The position numbers were made by a program, and so were the translations under genes. Of a DNA stretch of 64,000 bases, positions 35,060 through 43,978 are shown one piece after another. The notes beneath the pieces are model-generated. The model saw nothing but the letters and a program-made list of their open reading frames with translations, searched no databases and had not been told where the DNA came from. The stretch comes from an uncultured Bacteroidales bacterium (GTDB taxonomy: Bacteria > Bacteroidota > Bacteroidia > Bacteroidales > VadinHA17), in NCBI GenBank assembly GCA_963831855.1, contig CAWHSA010000004.1, positions 194,475 through 258,474 on the forward strand, written 5' to 3'. Numbering within the stretch: position 1 is the stretch's first letter; every line of letters begins with the position of its first letter.

Positions 35060-36544
35060 ATGAAAAGCAATCGTCGTGATTTTCTCAGGACCACAACATT
35101 TGCCGGGGCAGGTGCTTTGGCAGGTAGTATGATCTCCGGCTGCGCTCAGAAGGAAGCGGTATCAAATCTTGCAGGGATTCTTGAGGCTGTAAGAAAAACT
35201 CATTCTCCGCGATTTAACATGTCAGGATATGCTGCCCCGGCCCTCCCTGTTGTGAGAGTAGGCATCATAGGTCTTGGCGACAGGGGCGGTGAGGCTGTGA
35301 AACGGCTTACAAATATTGAAGGCGTCGAGATCAAGGCCCTTTGTGATAAACGGGAAGTTGCAGTTAAAGAATCACAAAAATATCTGCTGAGCATCGGACA
35401 TCCTGATGCACTGGAATTTTTCGGAGGCGAAGATGAATGGAAGAAGCTTATAGAACTACCTGATCTAGACCTGATTTATACATGCACCCCGTGGATTCTT
35501 CATACTCCCATTTGTGTTTATGCTATGGATCATGGAAAACATGCTGCGTCAGAAGTTCCCATTGCCAGGACCATTGATGAAGCATGGCAGCTGGTTGAGA
35601 CATCGGAAAGGACAAAGAAACATTGTATGATGCTCGAAAATTGCTGCTACGATTTCTTTGAGCTTCTTACTCTTAATATGGCCAGGCAGGGGATGTTTGG
35701 TGATATCATCCATGGTGAAGGTGCATATATTCATAACCTTCTTGGAATGAATTTTAAAAAACCAATTGACAATATCCAGGTCGACGGTGCATATACTGAT
35801 ATGTGGAGGCTGAAAGAAAATGCAACCAGGAACGGCAACCTTTACCCGACTCATGGACTTGGCCCTGTCTGCCAGGCTCTTAACATCAACCGGGGCGACA
35901 GAATGGAATATCTTTCTTCTGTATCAACAAAAGATTTTACCATGGCAGTTAAAGAAAAAGAGCTGGATGCATCAGATCCCTTTTATGATCTTTGGAAAAA
36001 TTCAGGGTTCAGAGGTAACTTCAATACCACGATTATAAGGTCGGCACTTGGGAAATCCATTATGATTCAGCACGATGTTTCCTCTTCACACCCATATTCA
36101 AGAATACACCTGGTCAAAGGGACCAGGGGAATGGCTGTTAAATACCCGAAACAGCTGATTGCACTTGGCGAAGTCTGGCTCAAAGAGGAGGATATGGCAA
36201 ACCTCTGGTCAGAGCATACACCCGAGATAGTAAAAAGGGTAGGAGAGATGGCTAAAAAAGTTGGCGGACACGGTGGGATGGACTTTATTATGGACTGGCG
36301 CCTTATTGATTGTCTGAGAAACGGTCTGCCTCTCGACCAGGATGTTTATGATGGTGCGGCATGGAGCTCAGTGGCTCCGTTAAGTGAATGGTCGGTGGCA
36401 AACAATTCTCAATCAATAGAAGTGCCCGATTTCACCGGGGGTTCATGGAAGATAAATAAGCCTCACGGAATAAATCTGGAGACAGGAGGAACAACTGCGT
36501 TTGTGGAAGTCAAAAAAGCTGAACTGCAGCCGGAGGAAAAATGA
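35060..36544 (+). CDS. Gfo/Idh/MocA-family NAD-dependent enzyme with Tat signal (GH109-like)
   Basis: 494 aa with the twin-arginine signal SNRRDFLRTTTFAGAGALAG and a lipobox-like ISGC. Also has the Rossmann motif VGIIGLGDRGG. This architecture is typical of GH109 alpha-N-acetylgalactosaminidase-like proteins. Confidence 0.7.
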   Translation: MKSNRRDFLRTTTFAGAGALAGSMISGCAQKEAVSNLAGILEAVRKTHSPRFNMSGYAAPALPVVRVGIIGLGDRGGEAVKRLTNIEGVEIKALCDKREVAVKESQKYLLSIGHPDALEFFGGEDEWKKLIELPDLDLIYTCTPWILHTPICVYAMDHGKHAASEVPIARTIDEAWQLVETSERTKKHCMMLENCCYDFFELLTLNMARQGMFGDIIHGEGAYIHNLLGMNFKKPIDNIQVDGAYTDMWRLKENATRNGNLYPTHGLGPVCQALNINRGDRMEYLSSVSTKDFTMAVKEKELDASDPFYDLWKNSGFRGNFNTTIIRSALGKSIMIQHDVSSSHPYSRIHLVKGTRGMAVKYPKQLIALGEVWLKEEDMANLWSEHTPEIVKRVGEMAKKVGGHGGMDFIMDWRLIDCLRNGLPLDQDVYDGAAWSSVAPLSEWSVANNSQSIEVPDFTGGSWKINKPHGINLETGGTTAFVEVKKAELQPEEK

Positions 36545-36671: not shown

Positions 36672-36679
36672 TACTTTTG
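36672..36679 (+). promoter_or_regulatory. Candidate Bacteroidota -7 promoter box (TAnnTTTG) for the Hyf/Ehr-like operon
   Basis: The sequence TACTTTTG lies about 35 nt upstream of the ATG at 36714. Confidence 0.3.
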
Positions 36680-36713
36680 CGGTCAAAATTTTTTGATCAG
36701 CGAAAATAAAAAA

Positions 36714-38708
36714 ATGTCGGGCGGTTTATTGTTTATCATAATTATCTCACTATCTCTTCCGGTTTTCTTCGTTCCAGGATCTCTGAAATACTACTACTCT
36801 CTCTTAATACTTGCCGGTGGAATTGGTTTGACTTCTATATGGTCATTTAATGTCCTTTCCGGTAGTATCGGTATTGCCGATTCAAAATTACTGATACCGT
36901 TAATTCATAATAACTTTATTCTGGCGATCGACAGGTTATCAGCATTTTTCCTGATAGTAATTAACATAACCGTTTTTGCCGGTTTCCTCTATGCCAGGGG
37001 ATACCTTCAGCCTTTCATTAAAACTAAAACACCGCTTCATTTCTCAATCCATTACTTCTCTTATCTGTGGCTTTATTTTTCGATGATTCTGGTCGTGATG
37101 ATCCGTAACGGACTCCCGTTTCTTATTGTCTGGGAAATTATGGCTCTCTCTTCATTCCTGCTGGTGATCTTTGATGCGGAGGAAAGGACTATTATGAAAA
37201 CAGGTATAGCCTATCTGATTCAGATGCATGCCGGTATGTTCTTTATTCTTGCAGCCTTCCTGATAGTGGATAAAGCAACAGGGAAAATGAGTTTTGATAC
37301 TCTGAATCTGTATTTTTCGAATCATTCAAATATTCTGATATTCATTCTCTTTTTTATAGGATTCGGTCTTAAGGCAGGATTCATACCCTTGCATACATGG
37401 CTTCCTGAAGCGCATCCGGCAGCTCCTTCACATGTTTCAGGAGTAATGTCAGGAGTAATGATAAAAATGGGCATATATGGAATCCTTAGGGTTCTGATAC
37501 AGGTTCAGAGCGATATGCTGCTGATCGGTGTTACCATACTGATAATTTCCCTGTTTTCAGGAGTTCTCGGGGTCATGATGGCTATTGTTCAACACGATCT
37601 GAAACGTTTACTGGCTTACCATAGCATTGAGAATATAGGTATTATAGGAATCGGAACAGGTCTTGGAATGGTGGGTCTTTCTGCAGAAAATAATGCATTG
37701 ACCCTACTTGGATTCAGCGGAAGCCTGCTTCATGTATTCAATCATTCACTTTTCAAATCACTCCTTTTTTTCAGTGCCGGATCAGTTTACAAAGCTACTC
37801 ATACGAGAAATATTGAACAACTCGGCGGGCTTATGAAAAATATGCCCTGGACATCAGGGTTGTTCCTTATCGGTTCCCTTGCAATATGCGGCCTTCCCCC
37901 ATTTAATGGCTTTATTTCGGAGTACCTGTTATACCTGGGGATGTTTAAAAGTCTTTCCGCTGCCAGCCTCTACCAGTCGATCCTGCTGTTATCAATGATC
38001 GTCGGACTTTCTCTTATCGGAGGACTTGCGCTTTTTTGTTTTACCAAAGCATTTGGGATTACTTTTCTGGGGTCACCACGATCAAAAAACGCTGCCGATG
38101 CAGTGGAAGTGACAAAAGATATGATATTACCCCAATTCATACTTGTTGCATTCATTGCAGCTGTAGGATTGGCTTCAGCTTTGTTTATCAGGCCTGTTTT
38201 TGGTATTGTGGTCCAGGCTTTTGGATTACCTGAATTATTAAATGGCTCAGGACCTTTCATAAATAACCTCACAAATATCAGTCTTATCAGTGGCATTTTT
38301 ATTGTTATGATTGTTATAATCCTGATATACAGATATATACATCTGAAATCCAGAAAGGTTGAAATCAGGTCCACCTGGGGCTGCGGGTATCCGGATACCA
38401 CATTCAGGCAGCAATATACAGCTACCTCTTATGCTTATAATTATAACCATCTGGCAAAACCTGTACTTCAGACCGGGAAGATCATGAATGACATCCGCGA
38501 GGATGAGATATTTCCCGAAAAAAGATCTTTCAGGTCACATAGCCCTGACATATTTAAAAAGCTTCTTGTTGATAAACCGGTAGATATTATTTCTGATCTG
38601 TTAAAGAAACTGGCAATAATGCAGACAGGAAAGATCCAGCATTATATATTATATGCATTTGTATTTATGCTTATTGTGTTATTGTTAACTTATTTAAAAG
38701 TTATCTGA
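36714..38708 (+). CDS. Antiporter-like membrane subunit, NuoL/HyfB/MrpA-like (EhrA-type)
   Basis: About 664 aa and polytopic. Has the motifs VWEIMALSSF, GLKAGFIPLHTWLPEAH, LAYHSIENIG and HSLFKSLLFF of the proton-conducting membrane transporter family. The longest ORF starts at a TTG at 36693; the ATG at 36714 is preferred. Confidence 0.8.
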   Translation: MSGGLLFIIIISLSLPVFFVPGSLKYYYSLLILAGGIGLTSIWSFNVLSGSIGIADSKLLIPLIHNNFILAIDRLSAFFLIVINITVFAGFLYARGYLQPFIKTKTPLHFSIHYFSYLWLYFSMILVVMIRNGLPFLIVWEIMALSSFLLVIFDAEERTIMKTGIAYLIQMHAGMFFILAAFLIVDKATGKMSFDTLNLYFSNHSNILIFILFFIGFGLKAGFIPLHTWLPEAHPAAPSHVSGVMSGVMIKMGIYGILRVLIQVQSDMLLIGVTILIISLFSGVLGVMMAIVQHDLKRLLAYHSIENIGIIGIGTGLGMVGLSAENNALTLLGFSGSLLHVFNHSLFKSLLFFSAGSVYKATHTRNIEQLGGLMKNMPWTSGLFLIGSLAICGLPPFNGFISEYLLYLGMFKSLSAASLYQSILLLSMIVGLSLIGGLALFCFTKAFGITFLGSPRSKNAADAVEVTKDMILPQFILVAFIAAVGLASALFIRPVFGIVVQAFGLPELLNGSGPFINNLTNISLISGIFIVMIVIILIYRYIHLKSRKVEIRSTWGCGYPDTTFRQQYTATSYAYNYNHLAKPVLQTGKIMNDIREDEIFPEKRSFRSHSPDIFKKLLVDKPVDIISDLLKKLAIMQTGKIQHYILYAFVFMLIVLLLTYLKVI

Positions 38709-38710
38709 TT

Positions 38711-39625
38711 TTGACAGGATTTGCTTTAATATTAGTTGCAGCGGTTTTCTTTCCCGGAGTAATATTGCGGGCAAAAAGCATTACCTCAGGACGAAGAGGA
38801 CCGGGTATATTGCAGCCTTTAAAAGATTTGCGGGTGCTGATGGGAAAAGGAAGTGTCTTCAGCAGCACTACAAGTATCATATTTCAGATTGCACCGGCAG
38901 TCTCTCTGGCCTCTGTTCTCTGTGCATCCCTTGTAGTTCCATTTGCAAATCAAAATGCATTTATTTCATTTGAAGGTGATTTTATCTTTTTCTCATACCT
39001 CCTTGCATCCGGAAAGTTCTTTTCAATCATTGCCGCACTTGATACCGGCAGCAGCTTCGGGGGAATGGGGGCAAACCGCGAAGCTTTCTTCTCCATGCTT
39101 ATTGAACCTGCATTTTTCATATTACTTGCTACTTTTGCCATGTTTACAGGCTATACCTCTTTCACTGATATTTTTAGCCACTTCTTTATTACAGGTAATC
39201 ATAATGTCTTAATATATAGCATTATAGGATTTTACCTGTTTATACAGATAGCTATGGTTGAGAACAGCCGTGTACCTGTGGATGATCCGAAGACTCACCT
39301 CGAACTTACTATGATTCATGAGGTGATGATTCTCGATAACAGCGGATTCGATAAAGCGTTGATCCACATAAGTTCATACCTGAAATTCGCGATTTATGGT
39401 TCTTTGATGTACAATCTTATAGTTCCTGCCGGATGGAACATAATTTTACAGATCGGGCTTTTTATTATGGTACAGCTTATGTTTGCTATCGTAATTGGGT
39501 TTACAGAATCTTTCCGGGCCCGGAATAAAATGAATAAAAATCCCAAATTCATTCTTACTATCTCAGCTGTTGCCTGGATTGCTTTTGTGGTGATTTTAAT
39601 ATTAACCGACAGATTTATCGGATAA
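38711..39625 (+). CDS. NuoH/HycD/HyfC-like membrane subunit (EhrB-type)
   Basis: 304 aa with about 8 TM. The loop RVPVDDPKTHLELTMIHEVMILDNSG aligns with the R-x-PFD-x2-E-x-E-x-EL...EYSG loop of the NuoH/HycD family. TTG start lies 2 nt after the upstream stop. Confidence 0.7.
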   Translation: MTGFALILVAAVFFPGVILRAKSITSGRRGPGILQPLKDLRVLMGKGSVFSSTTSIIFQIAPAVSLASVLCASLVVPFANQNAFISFEGDFIFFSYLLASGKFFSIIAALDTGSSFGGMGANREAFFSMLIEPAFFILLATFAMFTGYTSFTDIFSHFFITGNHNVLIYSIIGFYLFIQIAMVENSRVPVDDPKTHLELTMIHEVMILDNSGFDKALIHISSYLKFAIYGSLMYNLIVPAGWNIILQIGLFIMVQLMFAIVIGFTESFRARNKMNKNPKFILTISAVAWIAFVVILILTDRFIG

Positions 39626-39631
39626 ATAGAA

Positions 39632-40246
39632 ATGGTTAATTACCTTATAGTACTGTTCGCAATAACACTTATTTATTTTGCTTCCGCCGAAAGGCTGACA
39701 ACTTATATCAGGCTGATCGGTCTCCAGGGACTGTTGCTATGCGGAATTGCCCTTTTTGAGCTTAAGGAGATAAATGGTGCCAATCTTATCTTTATTGCAG
39801 CAGAAACGTTGATCTTCAAGACATTATTGATGCCGTACCTGTTGTTAAAGATCGTCAGGAACTCTGTCATTACCAAAGTCCATCGACTGGCTATGCCGGG
39901 ATTTTACACGCTTATCCTGTCAATATTTGCCCTTCTTATTAGTGTGATTCTCGCAAATTCCCTTATAAATCCCTTTATCAACACTATTTACATGTCAATT
40001 GCTCTGTTTGCTCTTTTTACCGGACTTGTGCTGATTGTTACCCACAGGCTTATAATCTCACACCTTATCGGTTTCCTGATAATTGAAAATGCTGTATTTA
40101 TGTTTTCTCTTGCTGTAGGAAATAAAATGCCAATGCTGATCAATGCCGGTATTCTGCTTGATATTTTCGTCGGAGTACTTATCCTTGGATTTTTCGGGTT
40201 GCGACTTAAATCGCATACCAACGAGCTGACAATGTTAAAAGATTAA
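39632..40246 (+). CDS. Small polytopic membrane subunit, HyfE/NuoK-like (EhrC-type)
   Basis: 204 aa with about 6 TM. Size and position match HyfE in hyf-type operons. The motif-level assignment is weak. Confidence 0.55.
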   Translation: MVNYLIVLFAITLIYFASAERLTTYIRLIGLQGLLLCGIALFELKEINGANLIFIAAETLIFKTLLMPYLLLKIVRNSVITKVHRLAMPGFYTLILSIFALLISVILANSLINPFINTIYMSIALFALFTGLVLIVTHRLIISHLIGFLIIENAVFMFSLAVGNKMPMLINAGILLDIFVGVLILGFFGLRLKSHTNELTMLKD

Positions 40247-40249
40247 GGT

Positions 40250-41686
40250 ATGGGACTACTCTTATTTTTTATTATTTCAGCGATAATGGGTATTTCAGTA
40301 GGAATACTCAAAAACAAAACTATCATTAAGATCATTACTCTCGGATTTGCAATTCTGCACATAGGTTTTACCTTGTACAGCTGGACTAATCTGGGAAGGA
40401 CCGAGCTGACTTATTTCTCTTATAATAGTCCGGGGGTATTATTGCTTTCAATCCTGTCGGTTCTTGTAATACCTACAATTTACCATGGATTTATTTATGC
40501 TTCCGGGAACGATGCCAAAAGATTCAGTATATATCATGGGGCATTAATTGCACTCATCACTTTCATGTCGGGCGCTTATCTGGCAAACGGAATGACTGTA
40601 TTATGGATATTTGTAGAAGCTACTACGCTTGCAGTAGCTGCCCTGATCTATCACGACCGGACTGAAATTGCCCTTGAGGCAACCTGGAAGTACGTATTTA
40701 TCTGTTCCACAGGTATTGCCCTGGCTTACCTGGGAATTCTGTTCTTAGGATTTATCTATGGCCGTGAAGATGCTGCAAACCTTTCTTTTGAAACTTTATC
40801 CGGTATAATCAACAAGGCGAATCCTATGTATCTGAAAATAGCGTTTCTGTTTGTCCTGGTCGGCTTCAGCACCAAGATGGGGCTTTTCCCGATGCATACT
40901 GTTACAATTGATGCTCACTCAGTTGCTCCTCCTCCGATAAGTGCGCTCATATCAACCACTTTGATGAATGTCGGGTTCCTGGCAATTTTCAGGGTATTTT
41001 CATTATTCTCATCATCATCAATCCTGAGCTTCATGAATAATGTCCTGATTCTTTCCGGGACACTTTCCATTTTAATTGCTGCGGGATATATGCTTAAAGC
41101 AAAGCACCTCAAACGGATGCTTGCTTATTCAAGCCTGGAAAATATGGGTCTTGTAGCAATTGCAATGGGTATTGGCGGTGTCGGGTATTATGCAGCATTT
41201 CTGCTACTGGTTCTCCATTCCCTGGCGAAATCTGGATTGTTCTATCAAATGGGCCAGCTTTCAAAGATACTTCACACATTCAAACTTGATGAGTGCGGGC
41301 GCTATATGAAACTTTACCCTGCAGGAGCAATGGTGCTTGTTACCGGAATGATCTGTATACTTGCTGTTCCGCCGTCAGGTTTATTTATTGCCGAATTCAT
41401 GATTTTTAAAGGATTGGTTTTCAACGGACAATGGCTGGTCATGATAATAGCAATCATATTGCTGTGCTTTGTTATATATGCAATGAGCACCAGAGTTATG
41501 CATATAGTATTTTCTGACCCGAGGAACCATTTTAAGCAGATTGAGCCGGACAGAGTAAGTCCTGTTGAGACATTCACCCAGTTTGCTTTTTTCGGAACAG
41601 TTATAGTTTTATGCTTTTATCAGCCTCCATTCCTCGTTGATCTCATTAATCAAAGCGTTGCATTATTGCCAAAATTAGCATTGTAA
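40250..41686 (+). CDS. Antiporter-like membrane subunit, NuoN/NuoM/HyfF-like (EhrD-type)
   Basis: 478 aa and polytopic. Has the motifs FVEATTLAV, FSTKMGLFPMHT, LAYSSLENMG and LHSLAKSGLFY of the proton-conducting membrane transporter family. Confidence 0.8.
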   Translation: MGLLLFFIISAIMGISVGILKNKTIIKIITLGFAILHIGFTLYSWTNLGRTELTYFSYNSPGVLLLSILSVLVIPTIYHGFIYASGNDAKRFSIYHGALIALITFMSGAYLANGMTVLWIFVEATTLAVAALIYHDRTEIALEATWKYVFICSTGIALAYLGILFLGFIYGREDAANLSFETLSGIINKANPMYLKIAFLFVLVGFSTKMGLFPMHTVTIDAHSVAPPPISALISTTLMNVGFLAIFRVFSLFSSSSILSFMNNVLILSGTLSILIAAGYMLKAKHLKRMLAYSSLENMGLVAIAMGIGGVGYYAAFLLLVLHSLAKSGLFYQMGQLSKILHTFKLDECGRYMKLYPAGAMVLVTGMICILAVPPSGLFIAEFMIFKGLVFNGQWLVMIIAIILLCFVIYAMSTRVMHIVFSDPRNHFKQIEPDRVSPVETFTQFAFFGTVIVLCFYQPPFLVDLINQSVALLPKLAL

Positions 41687-43203
41687 TGGGTCAGCACTTT
41701 AGAACAATAATAAACAATTCGTCACCGGTTGACATAAGGGATATACCCCTGTTAACCTATGATGAGTTTTATGTTCAGGTAACTGAATTTCTAAAAGCTG
41801 AAACCAGGCACTGTATTGCATATTTTTGTTATGAAGTCGCTGATAACCTGAGCTTTTATTGCTCAATTGCTGATGACAAGGATCTGACCATATCAGTATT
41901 TGCTTATTTATTGAATAAGAAGAATGCTACTTTAAAATCATTAACTCCGGCATCTCCCCAGCTTCATTTATTTGAGAGGGTGATCCATGAAAAGTACGGA
42001 GTGGAATTTAAGGGGCACCCATGGCTGAAGTTTGTCCGGTTCCCCCATGACCGTTTTGAAAAGGCAAAATCGATGCATGATTATCCTTTTTATGAAATTG
42101 AGAGCGAAGAGCTTCATGAAGTTGGAGTAGGCCCGGTTCATGCCGGTGTAATTGAACCAGGTCATTTCAGATTCATTTGCAACGGTGAAAAAGTATTGCA
42201 TCTTGAAATCCAGCTGGGGTATCAGCATCGTGGTATTGAAAAGTTGTTTCTCGAAAAAGGTACTCCACTGCAACAGTGTATAACCTCTGAATCCATTGCC
42301 GGAGATACTTCTGTCGGACATTCACTTGCCCATGCACAGCTTATTGAATCTTTAGCTGGATTGGAAACAGGTATAAAATTGCAGATTGAGCGCTGTATTG
42401 GCCTTGAACTTGAAAGGATGGCTGTTCATATTGGCGATACTGCTGCCTTATGCGGGGATGTAGCTTACCAGTTGGGACAGGTTGTTTGTGAAGCGCTCCG
42501 GACTACCATCATCAATACAACTCAACTCTGGTGCGGTAACCGCTTCGGAAAGGGACTTATACGTCCGGGCGGGACCAATTATCCTCTTAATGATAATGTT
42601 ACAGATGAGATAATGAGAGTTCTGACAGATACAGGAAAACGTTATTCAGAAATCGCAGACCGCATATTTACTCTGCCGAGTGTTCTTGCCCGTTTTGAGG
42701 ACATCGGAATAGTTACCAGGCAACAGGCAGCCGATACAGGGGCAGTGGGAATGGCAGCCCGGACATGTGGTATCCCCAGGGATATCCGGAAAACTCATCC
42801 TTTTCAATACTATAAAAGTTATCCAGTGCAACCCGTAATGCATTTTACAGGAGATGTACTGGCACGTGGGATGCAAAGGGTGCTTGAGGTAAAGGAATCT
42901 GCTAAGATCATCTCAGATCTTATTGGCATTTGGAAACAAAACTCAGGTCACAACCTGATGCCCGATTATAATTATAAGCTGAAACCGGGAAGTTACGCAG
43001 TTTCTCTGGTAGAAGGATGGAGGGGAGAAATTTGCCATGCTGCCGTAACCGGCGACAATGGTGAAATTATACATTATTATGTTAAGGATCCATCATTTCA
43101 CAACTGGATGTCACTCGCTCTGGCAGTCCGTAATCAGGAGATATCAGATTTTCCTGTTTGCAATAAAAGCTTTAACCTTTCCTATTGCGGACACGATTTG
43201 TAA
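41686..43203 (+). CDS. NuoC-NuoD / HycE-HyfG-like large subunit lacking the NiFe-binding cysteines (EhrL-type)
   Basis: 505 aa. The NuoC-like part has FERVIHEKYGVEFKGHP. The NuoD/large-subunit part has GVGPVHAGVIEPGHFRF and LGYQHRGIEK. The L1 site reads ESIAGDTSVGH where ER-x-CG-x-C-x3-H is expected. The C-terminus reads SFNLSYCGHDL where D-P-C-x-x-C-x-x-R/H is expected. The start overlaps the upstream stop (TAATG). Confidence 0.85.
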   Translation: MGQHFRTIINNSSPVDIRDIPLLTYDEFYVQVTEFLKAETRHCIAYFCYEVADNLSFYCSIADDKDLTISVFAYLLNKKNATLKSLTPASPQLHLFERVIHEKYGVEFKGHPWLKFVRFPHDRFEKAKSMHDYPFYEIESEELHEVGVGPVHAGVIEPGHFRFICNGEKVLHLEIQLGYQHRGIEKLFLEKGTPLQQCITSESIAGDTSVGHSLAHAQLIESLAGLETGIKLQIERCIGLELERMAVHIGDTAALCGDVAYQLGQVVCEALRTTIINTTQLWCGNRFGKGLIRPGGTNYPLNDNVTDEIMRVLTDTGKRYSEIADRIFTLPSVLARFEDIGIVTRQQAADTGAVGMAARTCGIPRDIRKTHPFQYYKSYPVQPVMHFTGDVLARGMQRVLEVKESAKIISDLIGIWKQNSGHNLMPDYNYKLKPGSYAVSLVEGWRGEICHAAVTGDNGEIIHYYVKDPSFHNWMSLALAVRNQEISDFPVCNKSFNLSYCGHDL

Positions 43204-43222
43204 GTCTTAATCATTTTTAAGG

Positions 43223-43978
43223 ATGATGTTGAAAGAAATAAAAATACTGAAGAGTCACGGCAGCCAGTACGTGAAGAACCTGCGGACACAAGCAGTTTCA
43301 CCGGCATTCAGAGGGCGTCCTGTAATTTCAGATGATCTGGGCAGTCCTGAAATACATTTTGTGACAAACCTTTGCCCGGTACAGGCGATAGGGAGTGAAA
43401 CCGGTTCCATTGATCTCGGCAAGTGCGTTTTTTGCAATGAATGTGCCCTGGCTCTTCCGGGGAAAATCAGATTTACAAGTGATTACAGGACAGCGGTTAA
43501 CAGGAGGGAGGATCTGGTAATTAATCCGGGAATTGATGTTCAGATCAGGTTAAATGATAATGTTATCAGGAAAGAGGCAAGGAAGTTATTCAAAAACGCA
43601 CTGAAGCTAAGACAGGTTTCTGCCGGTGGTGATAATTCGTGCGAGATGGAACTCGCAGCGACCGGGAACGTAAACTTTGATTTTGGACGCTACGGAATTG
43701 AATTTACCGCTTCGCCACGTCATGCAGACGGGATTGTAATCACCGGTCCGATAAGTGAAAACATGGCTGAAGCATTGGTAATGACATATGACGCAATACC
43801 TTCACCAAAGATCATCATACTTGCCGGAACTGATGCTATAAGCGGAGGTATCTTTGCAGGCACTCCTGCCCTGAACAGGCAGTTTATCGATAACCATCAT
43901 ATTGATCTATATATTCCCGGAAATCCGGTTCACCCGCTGACATTTATAAATGGAGTGCTGGATCTGCTTGGGATATAA
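43223..43978 (+). CDS. NuoB/HycG/HyfI-like small subunit with N-terminal single-cluster ferredoxin-like segment; proximal-cluster ligands mostly lost (EhrS-type)
   Basis: 251 aa. The NuoB-like core is FTASPRHADGIVITG ... PSPKIIILAGTDAISGG ... DLYIPGNPVHP. Only one Cys (GGDNSCEME) sits at the four canonical ligand positions. The N-terminus has LCPVQAI plus CVFCNEC. Confidence 0.8.
   Translation: MMLKEIKILKSHGSQYVKNLRTQAVSPAFRGRPVISDDLGSPEIHFVTNLCPVQAIGSETGSIDLGKCVFCNECALALPGKIRFTSDYRTAVNRREDLVINPGIDVQIRLNDNVIRKEARKLFKNALKLRQVSAGGDNSCEMELAATGNVNFDFGRYGIEFTASPRHADGIVITGPISENMAEALVMTYDAIPSPKIIILAGTDAISGGIFAGTPALNRQFIDNHHIDLYIPGNPVHPLTFINGVLDLLGI

Follow-up and report, generated by a model that had tools for sequence, protein, structure and literature searches.

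The window analysed here is a 64,000-nucleotide stretch (positions 194,475 to 258,474 of the forward strand) of contig CAWHSA010000004.1, from an uncultured Bacteroidales bacterium (assembly GCA_963831855.1). It carries a six-gene operon of the Ehr type, a family of group 4 hydrogenase-related complexes. The last gene of this operon encodes the small subunit, EhrS, in which four cysteines predicted to hold one [4Fe-4S] cluster are strictly conserved, and the ligand sets of a distal and of a terminal (N2 or proximal) cluster, both present in homologous proteins, are lost. The Ehr family, with its large subunit devoid of the NiFe site, was known already; what is new here is an EhrS with a single predicted cluster and without N2.

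The fused small subunit and its ligand positions

The EhrS gene is an intact open reading frame (ORF) of 251 amino acids, with the same translation as that quoted in an initial annotation of the locus. A public protein of 250 amino acids (P0001), which begins at the second methionine (gene call start 43226), is 100% identical. Judging from the alignments, EhrS joins two domains in a single fused chain, a HyfH/NuoI-like ferredoxin domain and a NuoB/HycG (HyfI)-like domain. The NuoB-like half matches PF01058 (Oxidored_q6) over residues 138-247 with 66.6 bits (cut-off 27), and a phmmer comparison with solved structures retrieves MbhJ (6cfw_J, E=8e-20) and HycG (7z0s_G, E=1e-17, over residues 103-250); EhrS stays below the cut-off of every NCBIfam NuoB model (best 82.6 vs 116). 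The ferredoxin half is matched by HycF (7z0s_F, E=6e-4, over residues 19-99) and by NuoI chains. The NCBIfam matches of this half are weak and sub-cut-off (PRK12387, 27.5 bits vs 204, residues 2-105; TIGR01971, 23.9 vs 113), but the weak alignments are nonetheless collinear and motif-consistent. An AlphaFold2 model of EhrS, built on a 60-sequence alignment, has a mean predicted local distance difference test score (pLDDT) of 56 and is confident for the ferredoxin domain alone (pLDDT 80-95 at residues ~31-90 and 73-77 at 81-110); in Foldseek, this model yields weak matches to the TYKY and PSST chains of complex I (E about 6e-3 to 2e-1).

EhrS contains exactly five cysteines (51, 68, 71, 74 and 140), all of which are placed by the MbhJ, HycG and HycF alignments, in agreement with the cysteine bookkeeping of the initial annotation. 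In the ferredoxin half, EhrS 'NLCPVQA' lies opposite HycF 'NACPSNA', so that C51 is kept, and 'CVFCNEC' lies opposite 'CIFCGRC', so that C68, C71 and C74 are kept; the first ferredoxin CxxCxxC of HycF lies opposite 'GSPEIHF', and the cysteine of HycF 'EVCP' opposite L78 in 'LALP'. What remains of two full CxxCxxCxxxCP motifs with eight cysteines is thus C51, the Cys-Pro cysteine of the first motif, together with the triad of the second. In the 2x[4Fe-4S] ferredoxin fold, one cluster is bound by the triad of one motif together with the Cys-Pro cysteine of the other. The initial annotation had located the ferredoxin cysteines at nucleotides 43373-43444, which are indeed the limits of the C51 to C74 codons, and had recognised in the four survivors the set of one cluster, a reading that is borne out by the HycF and Nqo9 alignments and by the conservation described below.

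The alignment with Thermus thermophilus Nqo9 (query residues 62-102, chain residues 92-133) puts C68, C71 and C74 on Cys98, Cys101 and Cys104, and L78 on Cys108. In the T. thermophilus peripheral arm, as Sazanov and Hinchliffe reportedly described in 2006, Cys63/98/101/104 hold cluster N6b and Cys53/56/59/108 hold N6a. Given the alignment and this ligand assignment, the retained EhrS site would be the medial, N6b-type site, which adjoins N2.

In the NuoB-like half, the canonical set of four cysteines that binds the proximal or N2 cluster (CxxC or CC, GxC, PGCP) is replaced by D137, C140, D204 and N234. The phmmer alignments put EhrS 'GGDNSCEME' opposite MbhJ 'GSCNGCDIE' and HycG 'GGCNGCEIE', with the first cysteine changed to D137 and the second corresponding to C140, 'AGTDAISGG' opposite 'IGACPTGG' and 'YGACGNSGG', with the cysteine changed to D204, and 'IPGNPVHP' opposite 'VPGCPPRP' and 'IPGCPPTP', with the cysteine changed to N234. 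The loss of three of the four proximal [4Fe-4S] ligands, proposed in the initial annotation, is therefore upheld by MbhJ and HycG alike. That annotation had allowed that a manual register error might conceal displaced cysteines. This possibility was rejected: three independent alignments with PDB chains concur and, because EhrS has five cysteines in total, the missing N2 cysteines are not displaced nearby.

Conservation was analysed in two samples, namely 120 sequence clusters (71-83% identity to EhrS) and 77 species-level Bacteroidota loci (59-83% identity). C51, C68, C71 and C74, for which the initial annotation had proposed a check in orthologues, are invariant throughout the 120 clusters and the 77 loci, where both TGC and TGT codons are used for them. 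Equally invariant in both samples are D137 (codons GAT/GAC) and N234 (AAT/AAC), and D204 is Asp in 119 of the 120 clusters and Glu in one (GAT/GAC/GAA in the loci). Since synonymous codons alternate at these otherwise fixed positions, selection acts on the amino acids. Position 78 is free to vary across the 77 loci (L/F/I/Y/M/C/K/N/A/V). Position 140 is occupied by Cys in 109 clusters, Ser in 10 and Gly in one, and in the loci by Cys (59), Ala (11), Thr (3), Ser (2), Val (1) or Gly (1), so that ~23% of the loci have a residue other than Cys. Orphaned ligands would be expected to drift, as positions 140 and 78 do. What is conserved of the former N2 pocket is accordingly Asp-Asp-Asn, with the surviving C140 incidental and dispensable; thus, the single NuoB cysteine that the initial annotation described as kept is present in this protein but is not a family trait (other residues in 18/77 loci). 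Conversely, its claim that a single [4Fe-4S] site is retained gains strong support from the conservation, with binding itself predicted from the ligand pattern. In remoter N2-less relatives, the position of N234 is occupied by Asp, Ser or His.

The family is large, with no fewer than 8000 matching database proteins and a relative encoded in at least 592 species-representative genomes. The best 80 of these genomes are essentially all metagenome-assembled genomes of Bacteroidales or other Bacteroidota (e.g. Rikenellaceae, Prolixibacteraceae and Lentimicrobiaceae).

The Ehr operon and its surroundings

The partner of EhrS, the large subunit EhrL, lacks the ligands of the NiFe site. In the alignment with HycE (7z0s_E, E=3e-36), HycE 'SDRVCGICGFAH' lies opposite EhrL 'SESIAGDTSVGH' and, in the second motif, 'SLDPCY' lies opposite 'SFNLSY' and 'DPCYSC' opposite 'NLSYCG', so that three of the NiFe ligand positions have changed from Cys to Ala, Thr and Ser, and the fourth is Gly. 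The L1 (RxCGxCxxxH) and L2 (DPCxxCxx(H/R)) motifs of group 4 enzymes are thus represented in EhrL by 'SESIAGDTSVGH' and 'NLSYCGHDL'. In the alignment with Nqo4 (2fug_4), the quinone-ligating H38 and Y87 correspond to I156 and G209, and the N2-facing R84 to Ser. A true [NiFe] hydrogenase was rejected, EhrL having no NiFe ligand motifs, and so was a respiratory complex I (NDH-1), the N2 ligands and the equivalents of Nqo4 H38 and Y87 being lost.

What the operon does contain is a NiFe-less large subunit of the group 4/NuoD-like type together with a small subunit and NuoH-, HyfE- and Mrp/NuoL-like subunits (Table 1). By gene content and motifs, it encodes an Ehr complex, with EhrS as its small subunit. 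Ehr complexes are related to group 4 hydrogenases, lack the metal-binding cysteines and are described as functionally uncharacterised (PMC6349859, PMC10284858, PMC4378227, PMC7304191); the subunit set found here corresponds to the EhrA/B/C/D/L/S nomenclature of Geobacter (PMC7894505). The protein that the initial annotation had framed as an isolated oddity among NuoB/HycG hydrogenase subunits is therefore the EhrS of a known family, already described as NiFe-less.

Table 1. Coordinates of the Ehr operon genes and of the EhrS domains and ligand positions in the window.
Feature	Coordinates	Strand	Basis
EhrA, antiporter-like membrane subunit resembling HyfB-HycC, 671 aa	36693..38708	+	PF00361 E=7e-51; HycC 7z0s_C E=2e-65
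EhrB, HyfC-HycD-NuoH-like membrane subunit, 304 aa	38711..39625	+	PF00146 E=1.5e-27; HycD 7z0s_D E=2e-21
EhrC, HyfE-like membrane subunit, 204 aa	39632..40246	+	PRK11492 'hydrogenase 4 membrane subunit' E=2e-10, sub-cut-off; operon position conserved
EhrD, HyfF-like antiporter-like subunit, 478 aa	40250..41686	+	PF00361 E=7e-41; MbsH 6u8y_H E=3e-26
EhrL, NuoC-NuoD/HycE-like large subunit without NiFe ligands, 505 aa	41686..43203	+	PF00346, PF00329
EhrS, fused ferredoxin-like and NuoB-like subunit, 251 aa	43223..43978	+	Pfam, NCBIfam and PDB alignments
EhrS residues 1-105, HyfH/HycF/NuoI-like domain (N-terminal extension and half-ferredoxin)	43223..43537	+	PRK12387, HycF alignment
Predicted single [4Fe-4S] site: C51 (43373-75), C68 (43424-26), C71 (43433-35), C74 (43442-44)	43373..43444	+	HycF and Nqo9 alignments
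L78, in place of the Cys-Pro cysteine that served the lost distal (N6a-type) cluster	43454..43456	+	Opposite Cys of HycF 'EVCP'
EhrS residues 131-250, NuoB/HycG/MbhJ-like domain	43613..43972	+	MbhJ, HycG, PF01058
Former proximal-cluster CxxC: D137 (43631-33), C140 (43640-42)	43631..43642	+	MbhJ/HycG alignment
D204, in place of the third cluster cysteine (GxC changed to GTD)	43832..43834	+	MbhJ/HycG alignment
N234, in place of the fourth cluster cysteine (PGCP changed to PGNP)	43922..43924	+	MbhJ/HycG alignment

Among the closest known counterparts is the Ehr of Geobacter sulfurreducens (GSU0739-45), which likewise combines antiporter-like, NuoH-like, HyfE-like, large and small subunits, has a large subunit without the RxCGxCxxxH and DPCxxC motifs (PMC4378227, PMC10284858, PMC7894505), has no adjacent maturation or input genes and is likewise uncharacterised in function. 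It differs in having two EhrA subunits, compared to one in the Bacteroidota branch, and here EhrS has, in addition, lost the ligands of the distal and N2/proximal clusters. No report of cluster loss in the small subunit was found in the open literature on EhrS, on cryo-EM of Ehr complexes or on hyf-like operons of Bacteroidales, where the defect of the large subunit alone is treated, although Marreiros 2013 or Coppi 2005 could already mention the loss of N2 ligands.

EhrL retains conserved residues of its own, namely D210 and, at the C-terminus, 'CNKSFNLSYCGHDL', both of which are shared by 68 loci. D210 is an invariant Asp within the former NiFe L1 motif (residues 205-215, ESIAGDTSVGH), and the near-invariant C-terminus (residues 488-505, DFPvCNKSFNLSYCGHDL) contains two Cys, C492 and C501, and a His, H503; both features are common to Ehr operons with three, two or one predicted clusters. 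Together they could form a non-NiFe metal site or a substrate site. A relocated inter-subunit cluster held by C140 and the C-terminal Cys/His of EhrL was rejected as a general feature, given that C140 is replaced in about one quarter of the loci and that the EhrL motif is equally found in relatives with an intact N2 site.

The membrane arm appears functional as far as its residues indicate. In the alignment with HycC, EhrA keeps all the canonical residues, namely the Glu of transmembrane helix (TM) 5, the Lys of TM7 and TM8, 'HSLFK' and the Glu of TM12; it scores 537 bits against the NCBIfam hydrogenase 4 subunit B model, under the cut-off of that model. The listed TTG start of EhrA at 36693 may be wrong, with an alternative ATG at 36715, and 'TACTTTTG' at 36672-36679, just 5' of the gene, fits the Bacteroidetes -7 promoter consensus TAnnTTTG. 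In EhrD, the Glu of TM5, the Lys of TM7 and the Glu of TM12 are retained, and the central Lys of TM8 is Asn ('LMNVG' vs 'VVKAG' and 'VIKIG').

The six co-directional genes, of which EhrS is the last, span 36693-43978 with gaps of at most 19 nucleotides and one pair overlapping by 1 nucleotide, and their order is conserved in ~60 of 80 related loci. In divergent operons, EhrS is the best-conserved subunit; in locus L044, for instance, it is 65% identical to that of the window, compared to 41-55% for the other five subunits. L044 is among the members of a second Bacteroidota operon sub-family (with L007, L018, L019, L051, L056, L059, L060, L066-L074 and L078), whose membrane subunits are 40-55% and whose EhrS is 60-72% identical to those of the window. 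Alternative gene orders are suggested by three loci in which the usual membrane-subunit genes are missing from in front of EhrS: L041 has an EhrA-like gene 3' of EhrS, in L046 EhrL alone accompanies EhrS, and in L077 EhrS was detected without any of its five partner genes.

Neither hydrogenase maturation genes (hyp, endopeptidase) nor dedicated electron-input genes were found at 28-52 kb of the window, where the neighbours are housekeeping genes, and the same is true of L081-L085. A convergent gamma-glutamyltranspeptidase gene ends 13 nucleotides downstream of the EhrS gene. Directly upstream of the operon, on the same strand, lies a probably unrelated gene (35060-36544), whose product is an oxidoreductase of the GFO/IDH/MocA type bearing a twin-arginine signal and, C-terminally, a GH109 domain.

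Relatives with three, two or one predicted clusters

A HMMER scan of 1.8 billion representatives yielded 3858 homologues, and in the best 150 of these, the proteins with a NuoI-NuoB fusion form a graded series with respect to cluster ligands. Type A proteins have all twelve cysteines and three predicted clusters (e.g. P0132). Type B proteins combine the four-cysteine half-ferredoxin with an intact N2 site, i.e. two predicted clusters (P0124 from Cloacimonadota, P0131, P0135, P0196 and P0209). In type C, which includes the family of the window as well as P0121, P0122, P0130, P0165, P0206 and P0259, the half-ferredoxin is accompanied by the loss of N2, with D-x-D-(N/D/S/H) at the former ligand positions, and in type D (P0212 and P0194) N2 is lost next to a full ferredoxin. 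The ferredoxin cysteine quartet is present in essentially all full-length members of the series.

The genomic contexts representing the four types (L085 for A, L084 for B, L081 for C and L083 for D) contain the same type of operon, with one additional EhrA-type gene in L085, which has a Geobacter-like, seven-gene layout and keeps all three cluster sites. No input module was detected in any of the four, and in all of them EhrL carries the Ehr signatures 'AE(S/T)xAGDT' and 'DFPxCNKSFNLSYCGHDL'. A more distant N2-less EhrS (P0276, context L082) has D-V-D-S at the ligand positions. Its operon is rearranged, EhrA being encoded 3' of EhrS, and has as neighbours two DUF190 genes, a gene for a universal stress protein and, nearby, a flavodoxin gene; the large subunit encoded there has no 'CNKSFNLSYCGHDL' tail. 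Beyond input modules, electron-input, partner or acceptor genes were looked for on both sides of the operons of the window and of L081-L085, and none was found.

In a rough neighbour-joining tree, which is to be taken as indicative, N2-less sequences occupy three or more distinct branches, and acidic replacements are found on each (ERED, DDKD, ECED, DIDD and DVDS in the various N2-less lineages). The electron wire of Ehr complexes thus appears, from these comparisons, to have been trimmed repeatedly, with the remaining machine kept. Because operons with three, two and one predicted clusters share their gene content (apart from the extra EhrA-type gene of L085) and the EhrL motifs, and because N2 was lost on at least three branches, the wire looks dispensable for Ehr activity.

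The type B proteins bear on two further points. First, a chain of two clusters is workable only if the retained ferredoxin cluster adjoins N2, which supports the N6b-type identity of the site retained in EhrS. Second, the half-ferredoxin must predate the loss of N2, since type B relatives have it along with all four N2-type cysteines. The initial annotation had described the half-ferredoxin as gained, with the implication of a compensation for the lost proximal ligands; it is instead inherited, being present in P0124, P0131, P0135 and P0196 next to an intact N2 site, and goes back to an old gene fusion of the hyfH-hyfI type that later lost one cluster. The separate counterparts of the two halves, Escherichia coli HycF and HycG (or HyfH and HyfI), resemble EhrS in domain order, in their folds and in being encoded behind the large subunit, where the operon ends. 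They differ in being two proteins with three [4Fe-4S] clusters (F1, F2 and G1) wired to NiFe in the formate hydrogenlyase (FHL) complex 7Z0S (PMC9474812), as opposed to a single protein here, with one predicted cluster and without a NiFe site; the C-terminal extension found in HycF, with an additional Cys4 metal site, has no counterpart in EhrS.

Such a series, from three clusters to two to one with NiFe missing as well, in a family without a characterised function, might also be what a decaying relic leaves behind, i.e. a pseudo-enzyme on its way to loss, the cysteines of which no longer hold a cluster. We consider this highly improbable, as relatives persist in hundreds of species-level genomes and thousands of database proteins (the lower bounds given above), all six ORFs are intact and syntenic, and the key residues are invariant in spite of synonymous codon change. 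Moreover, the orphaned positions 78 and 140 drift, whereas the cysteine quartet does not.

A predicted cluster, probably apart from an electron wire

In complex I, the edge-to-edge distance from N6b to N2 is ~10.5 Å and that from N2 to quinone is ~12 Å. Without N2, an N6b-type cluster would, on the assumption that complex I distances apply, lie roughly two steps (>20 Å) from the EhrL pocket. Electrons pass through complex I in the order ferredoxin-N6a-N6b-N2-quinone (PMC7021789), and in FHL the relay steps are shorter than 14 Å, with a rate of ~100 per second quoted at 17 Å (PMC9474812). The modules of EhrS are homologous to NuoI (Nqo9, NdhI) and NuoB (Nqo6, NdhK) of complex I, with the retained cysteines at the N6b position and the lost ones at N6a and N2; the Ehr operon differs from complex I in having no N2, no quinone ligands and no NuoA/J/K/E/F/G genes. 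Because the relay cluster and both the NiFe and the quinone ligands of EhrL are missing, the remaining cluster most likely feeds no catalytic wire. The initial annotation had likewise noted that no relay cluster lies between the retained site and the large-subunit pocket.

The reading that we prefer, at a probability of roughly 45%, is that of a complex with one structural or redox-sensing N6b-equivalent cluster, a refilled N2 pocket and an ion-translocating membrane arm. C51, C68, C71 and C74 would bind one [4Fe-4S] cluster, the counterpart of the medial N6b of complex I, in an EhrS from which the distal (N6a) and terminal (N2/proximal) sites would be gone. The carboxylates of D137 and D204 and the amide of N234 would refill the N2 pocket and may mimic the charge of a cluster. 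The cluster itself would be a keystone for folding and assembly of the ferredoxin domain, clamping the peripheral module onto the NuoH-like subunit, and may in addition signal to that module how reduced the ferredoxin pool is; ion translocation would be carried out by the antiporter-like membrane arm. A precedent of sorts is cluster N7 of bacterial NuoG, a conserved [4Fe-4S] cluster that is too distant to relay electrons and is presumably kept for stability. The likeness lies in the conservation of an off-pathway cluster, but N7 coexists with a complete wire, whereas the EhrS cluster would be the only one left. A sensory or structural Fe-S cluster was one of two options offered by the initial annotation; for the other, a new reaction geometry, no positive evidence emerged, with no input or acceptor partner in the operons of the window and of L081-L085.

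Several points weigh against this reading. The assignment of ligands to N6a and N6b depends on the T. thermophilus structure, the AlphaFold2 model of the NuoB half is poor, and both cluster binding and the activity of the complex are predictions from sequence. A tunnelling-rule estimate, with assumed distances of 20-22 Å and zero driving force, gives a rate of ~1-10 per second, which is slow yet non-zero, so that catalytic wiring is unlikely and electron equilibration possible. Furthermore, D137, D204 and N234 are conserved more strictly than a space-filler needs and could be the sign of a new site, for a metal or for protons, by which a pathway is restored, and the conserved Asp of EhrL, with the Cys/Cys/His motif at its C-terminus, could be a catalytic site.

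These last points lead to an alternative in which the complex is a ferredoxin-driven oxidoreductase, its single cluster passing electrons to an acceptor through a redox metal at D137/D204/N234, perhaps together with EhrL, or through a partner docked beside the cluster. Absolute conservation of the cysteine quartet in the most constrained subunit of the complex fits such an enzyme, as do the metal-capable O or N donors found at all the replaced positions (D, D/E and, in relatives, N/D/S/H), the retention in EhrL of D210 and of the Cys/Cys/His motif, and the resemblance of the three-cluster relatives (L085) to genuine redox enzymes. However, the operon neighbourhoods of the window and of L081-L085 are devoid of a partner or acceptor gene, a site of Asp, Asp and Asn without His or Cys is atypical for a redox metal, a possible thiolate donor at position 140 is not conserved, and recurrent loss of N2 on several branches is easier to account for if the wire is dispensable. 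On balance, we regard an oxidoreductase of this kind as unlikely.

The same pocket can be read in the opposite sense, with D137/D204/N234 binding a redox-inert cation (Mg2+, Ca2+, Zn2+ or Na+) or mimicking the charge of the cluster, the NuoB-NuoD interface frozen, the remaining cluster purely structural and the complex working as a redox-independent, Mrp-like cation/proton antiporter. On chemical grounds, two carboxylates would stand in for a cluster centre with a net charge of about -2; acidic replacements recur in independent N2-less lineages, and the antiporter-like subunits are intact. Cation binding, though, is conjectural here, and a pure antiporter has no obvious need for homologues of NuoC, NuoD, NuoB and NuoI under such strong constraint. 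This explanation, which strikes us as quite unlikely, overlaps the preferred one, from which it differs solely in denying redox sensing.

If the preferred reading of a cluster without an electron wire is taken one step further, the N6b-type cluster as a redox sensor, or the Asp-Asp-Asn pocket with a new cofactor, might gate or drive ion translocation, a proposal that we put forward as a speculative one with the odds clearly against it.

Ehr complexes are common across many phyla, and published comment has centred on the missing NiFe site. To this, the present analysis adds a Bacteroidota clade, spanning at least 592 species-level genomes, that lacks N2 and strictly keeps one isolated predicted cluster together with an Asp-Asp-Asn pocket, which argues that the core function of Ehr is independent of electrons reaching the large-subunit pocket. 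These observations bear on how peripheral modules are coupled to ion pumping in the complex I superfamily and on the evolutionary decay of redox wires, and they provide concrete targets for mutational and spectroscopic work (C51, C68, C71, C74, D137, D204 and N234). Should the Ehr of this clade indeed be a wire-free machine, it would be a complex I-type device coupled to a non-redox process at the NuoB/NuoD interface, and the natural variants with three, two and one clusters would offer a ready series for finding the function of Ehr.

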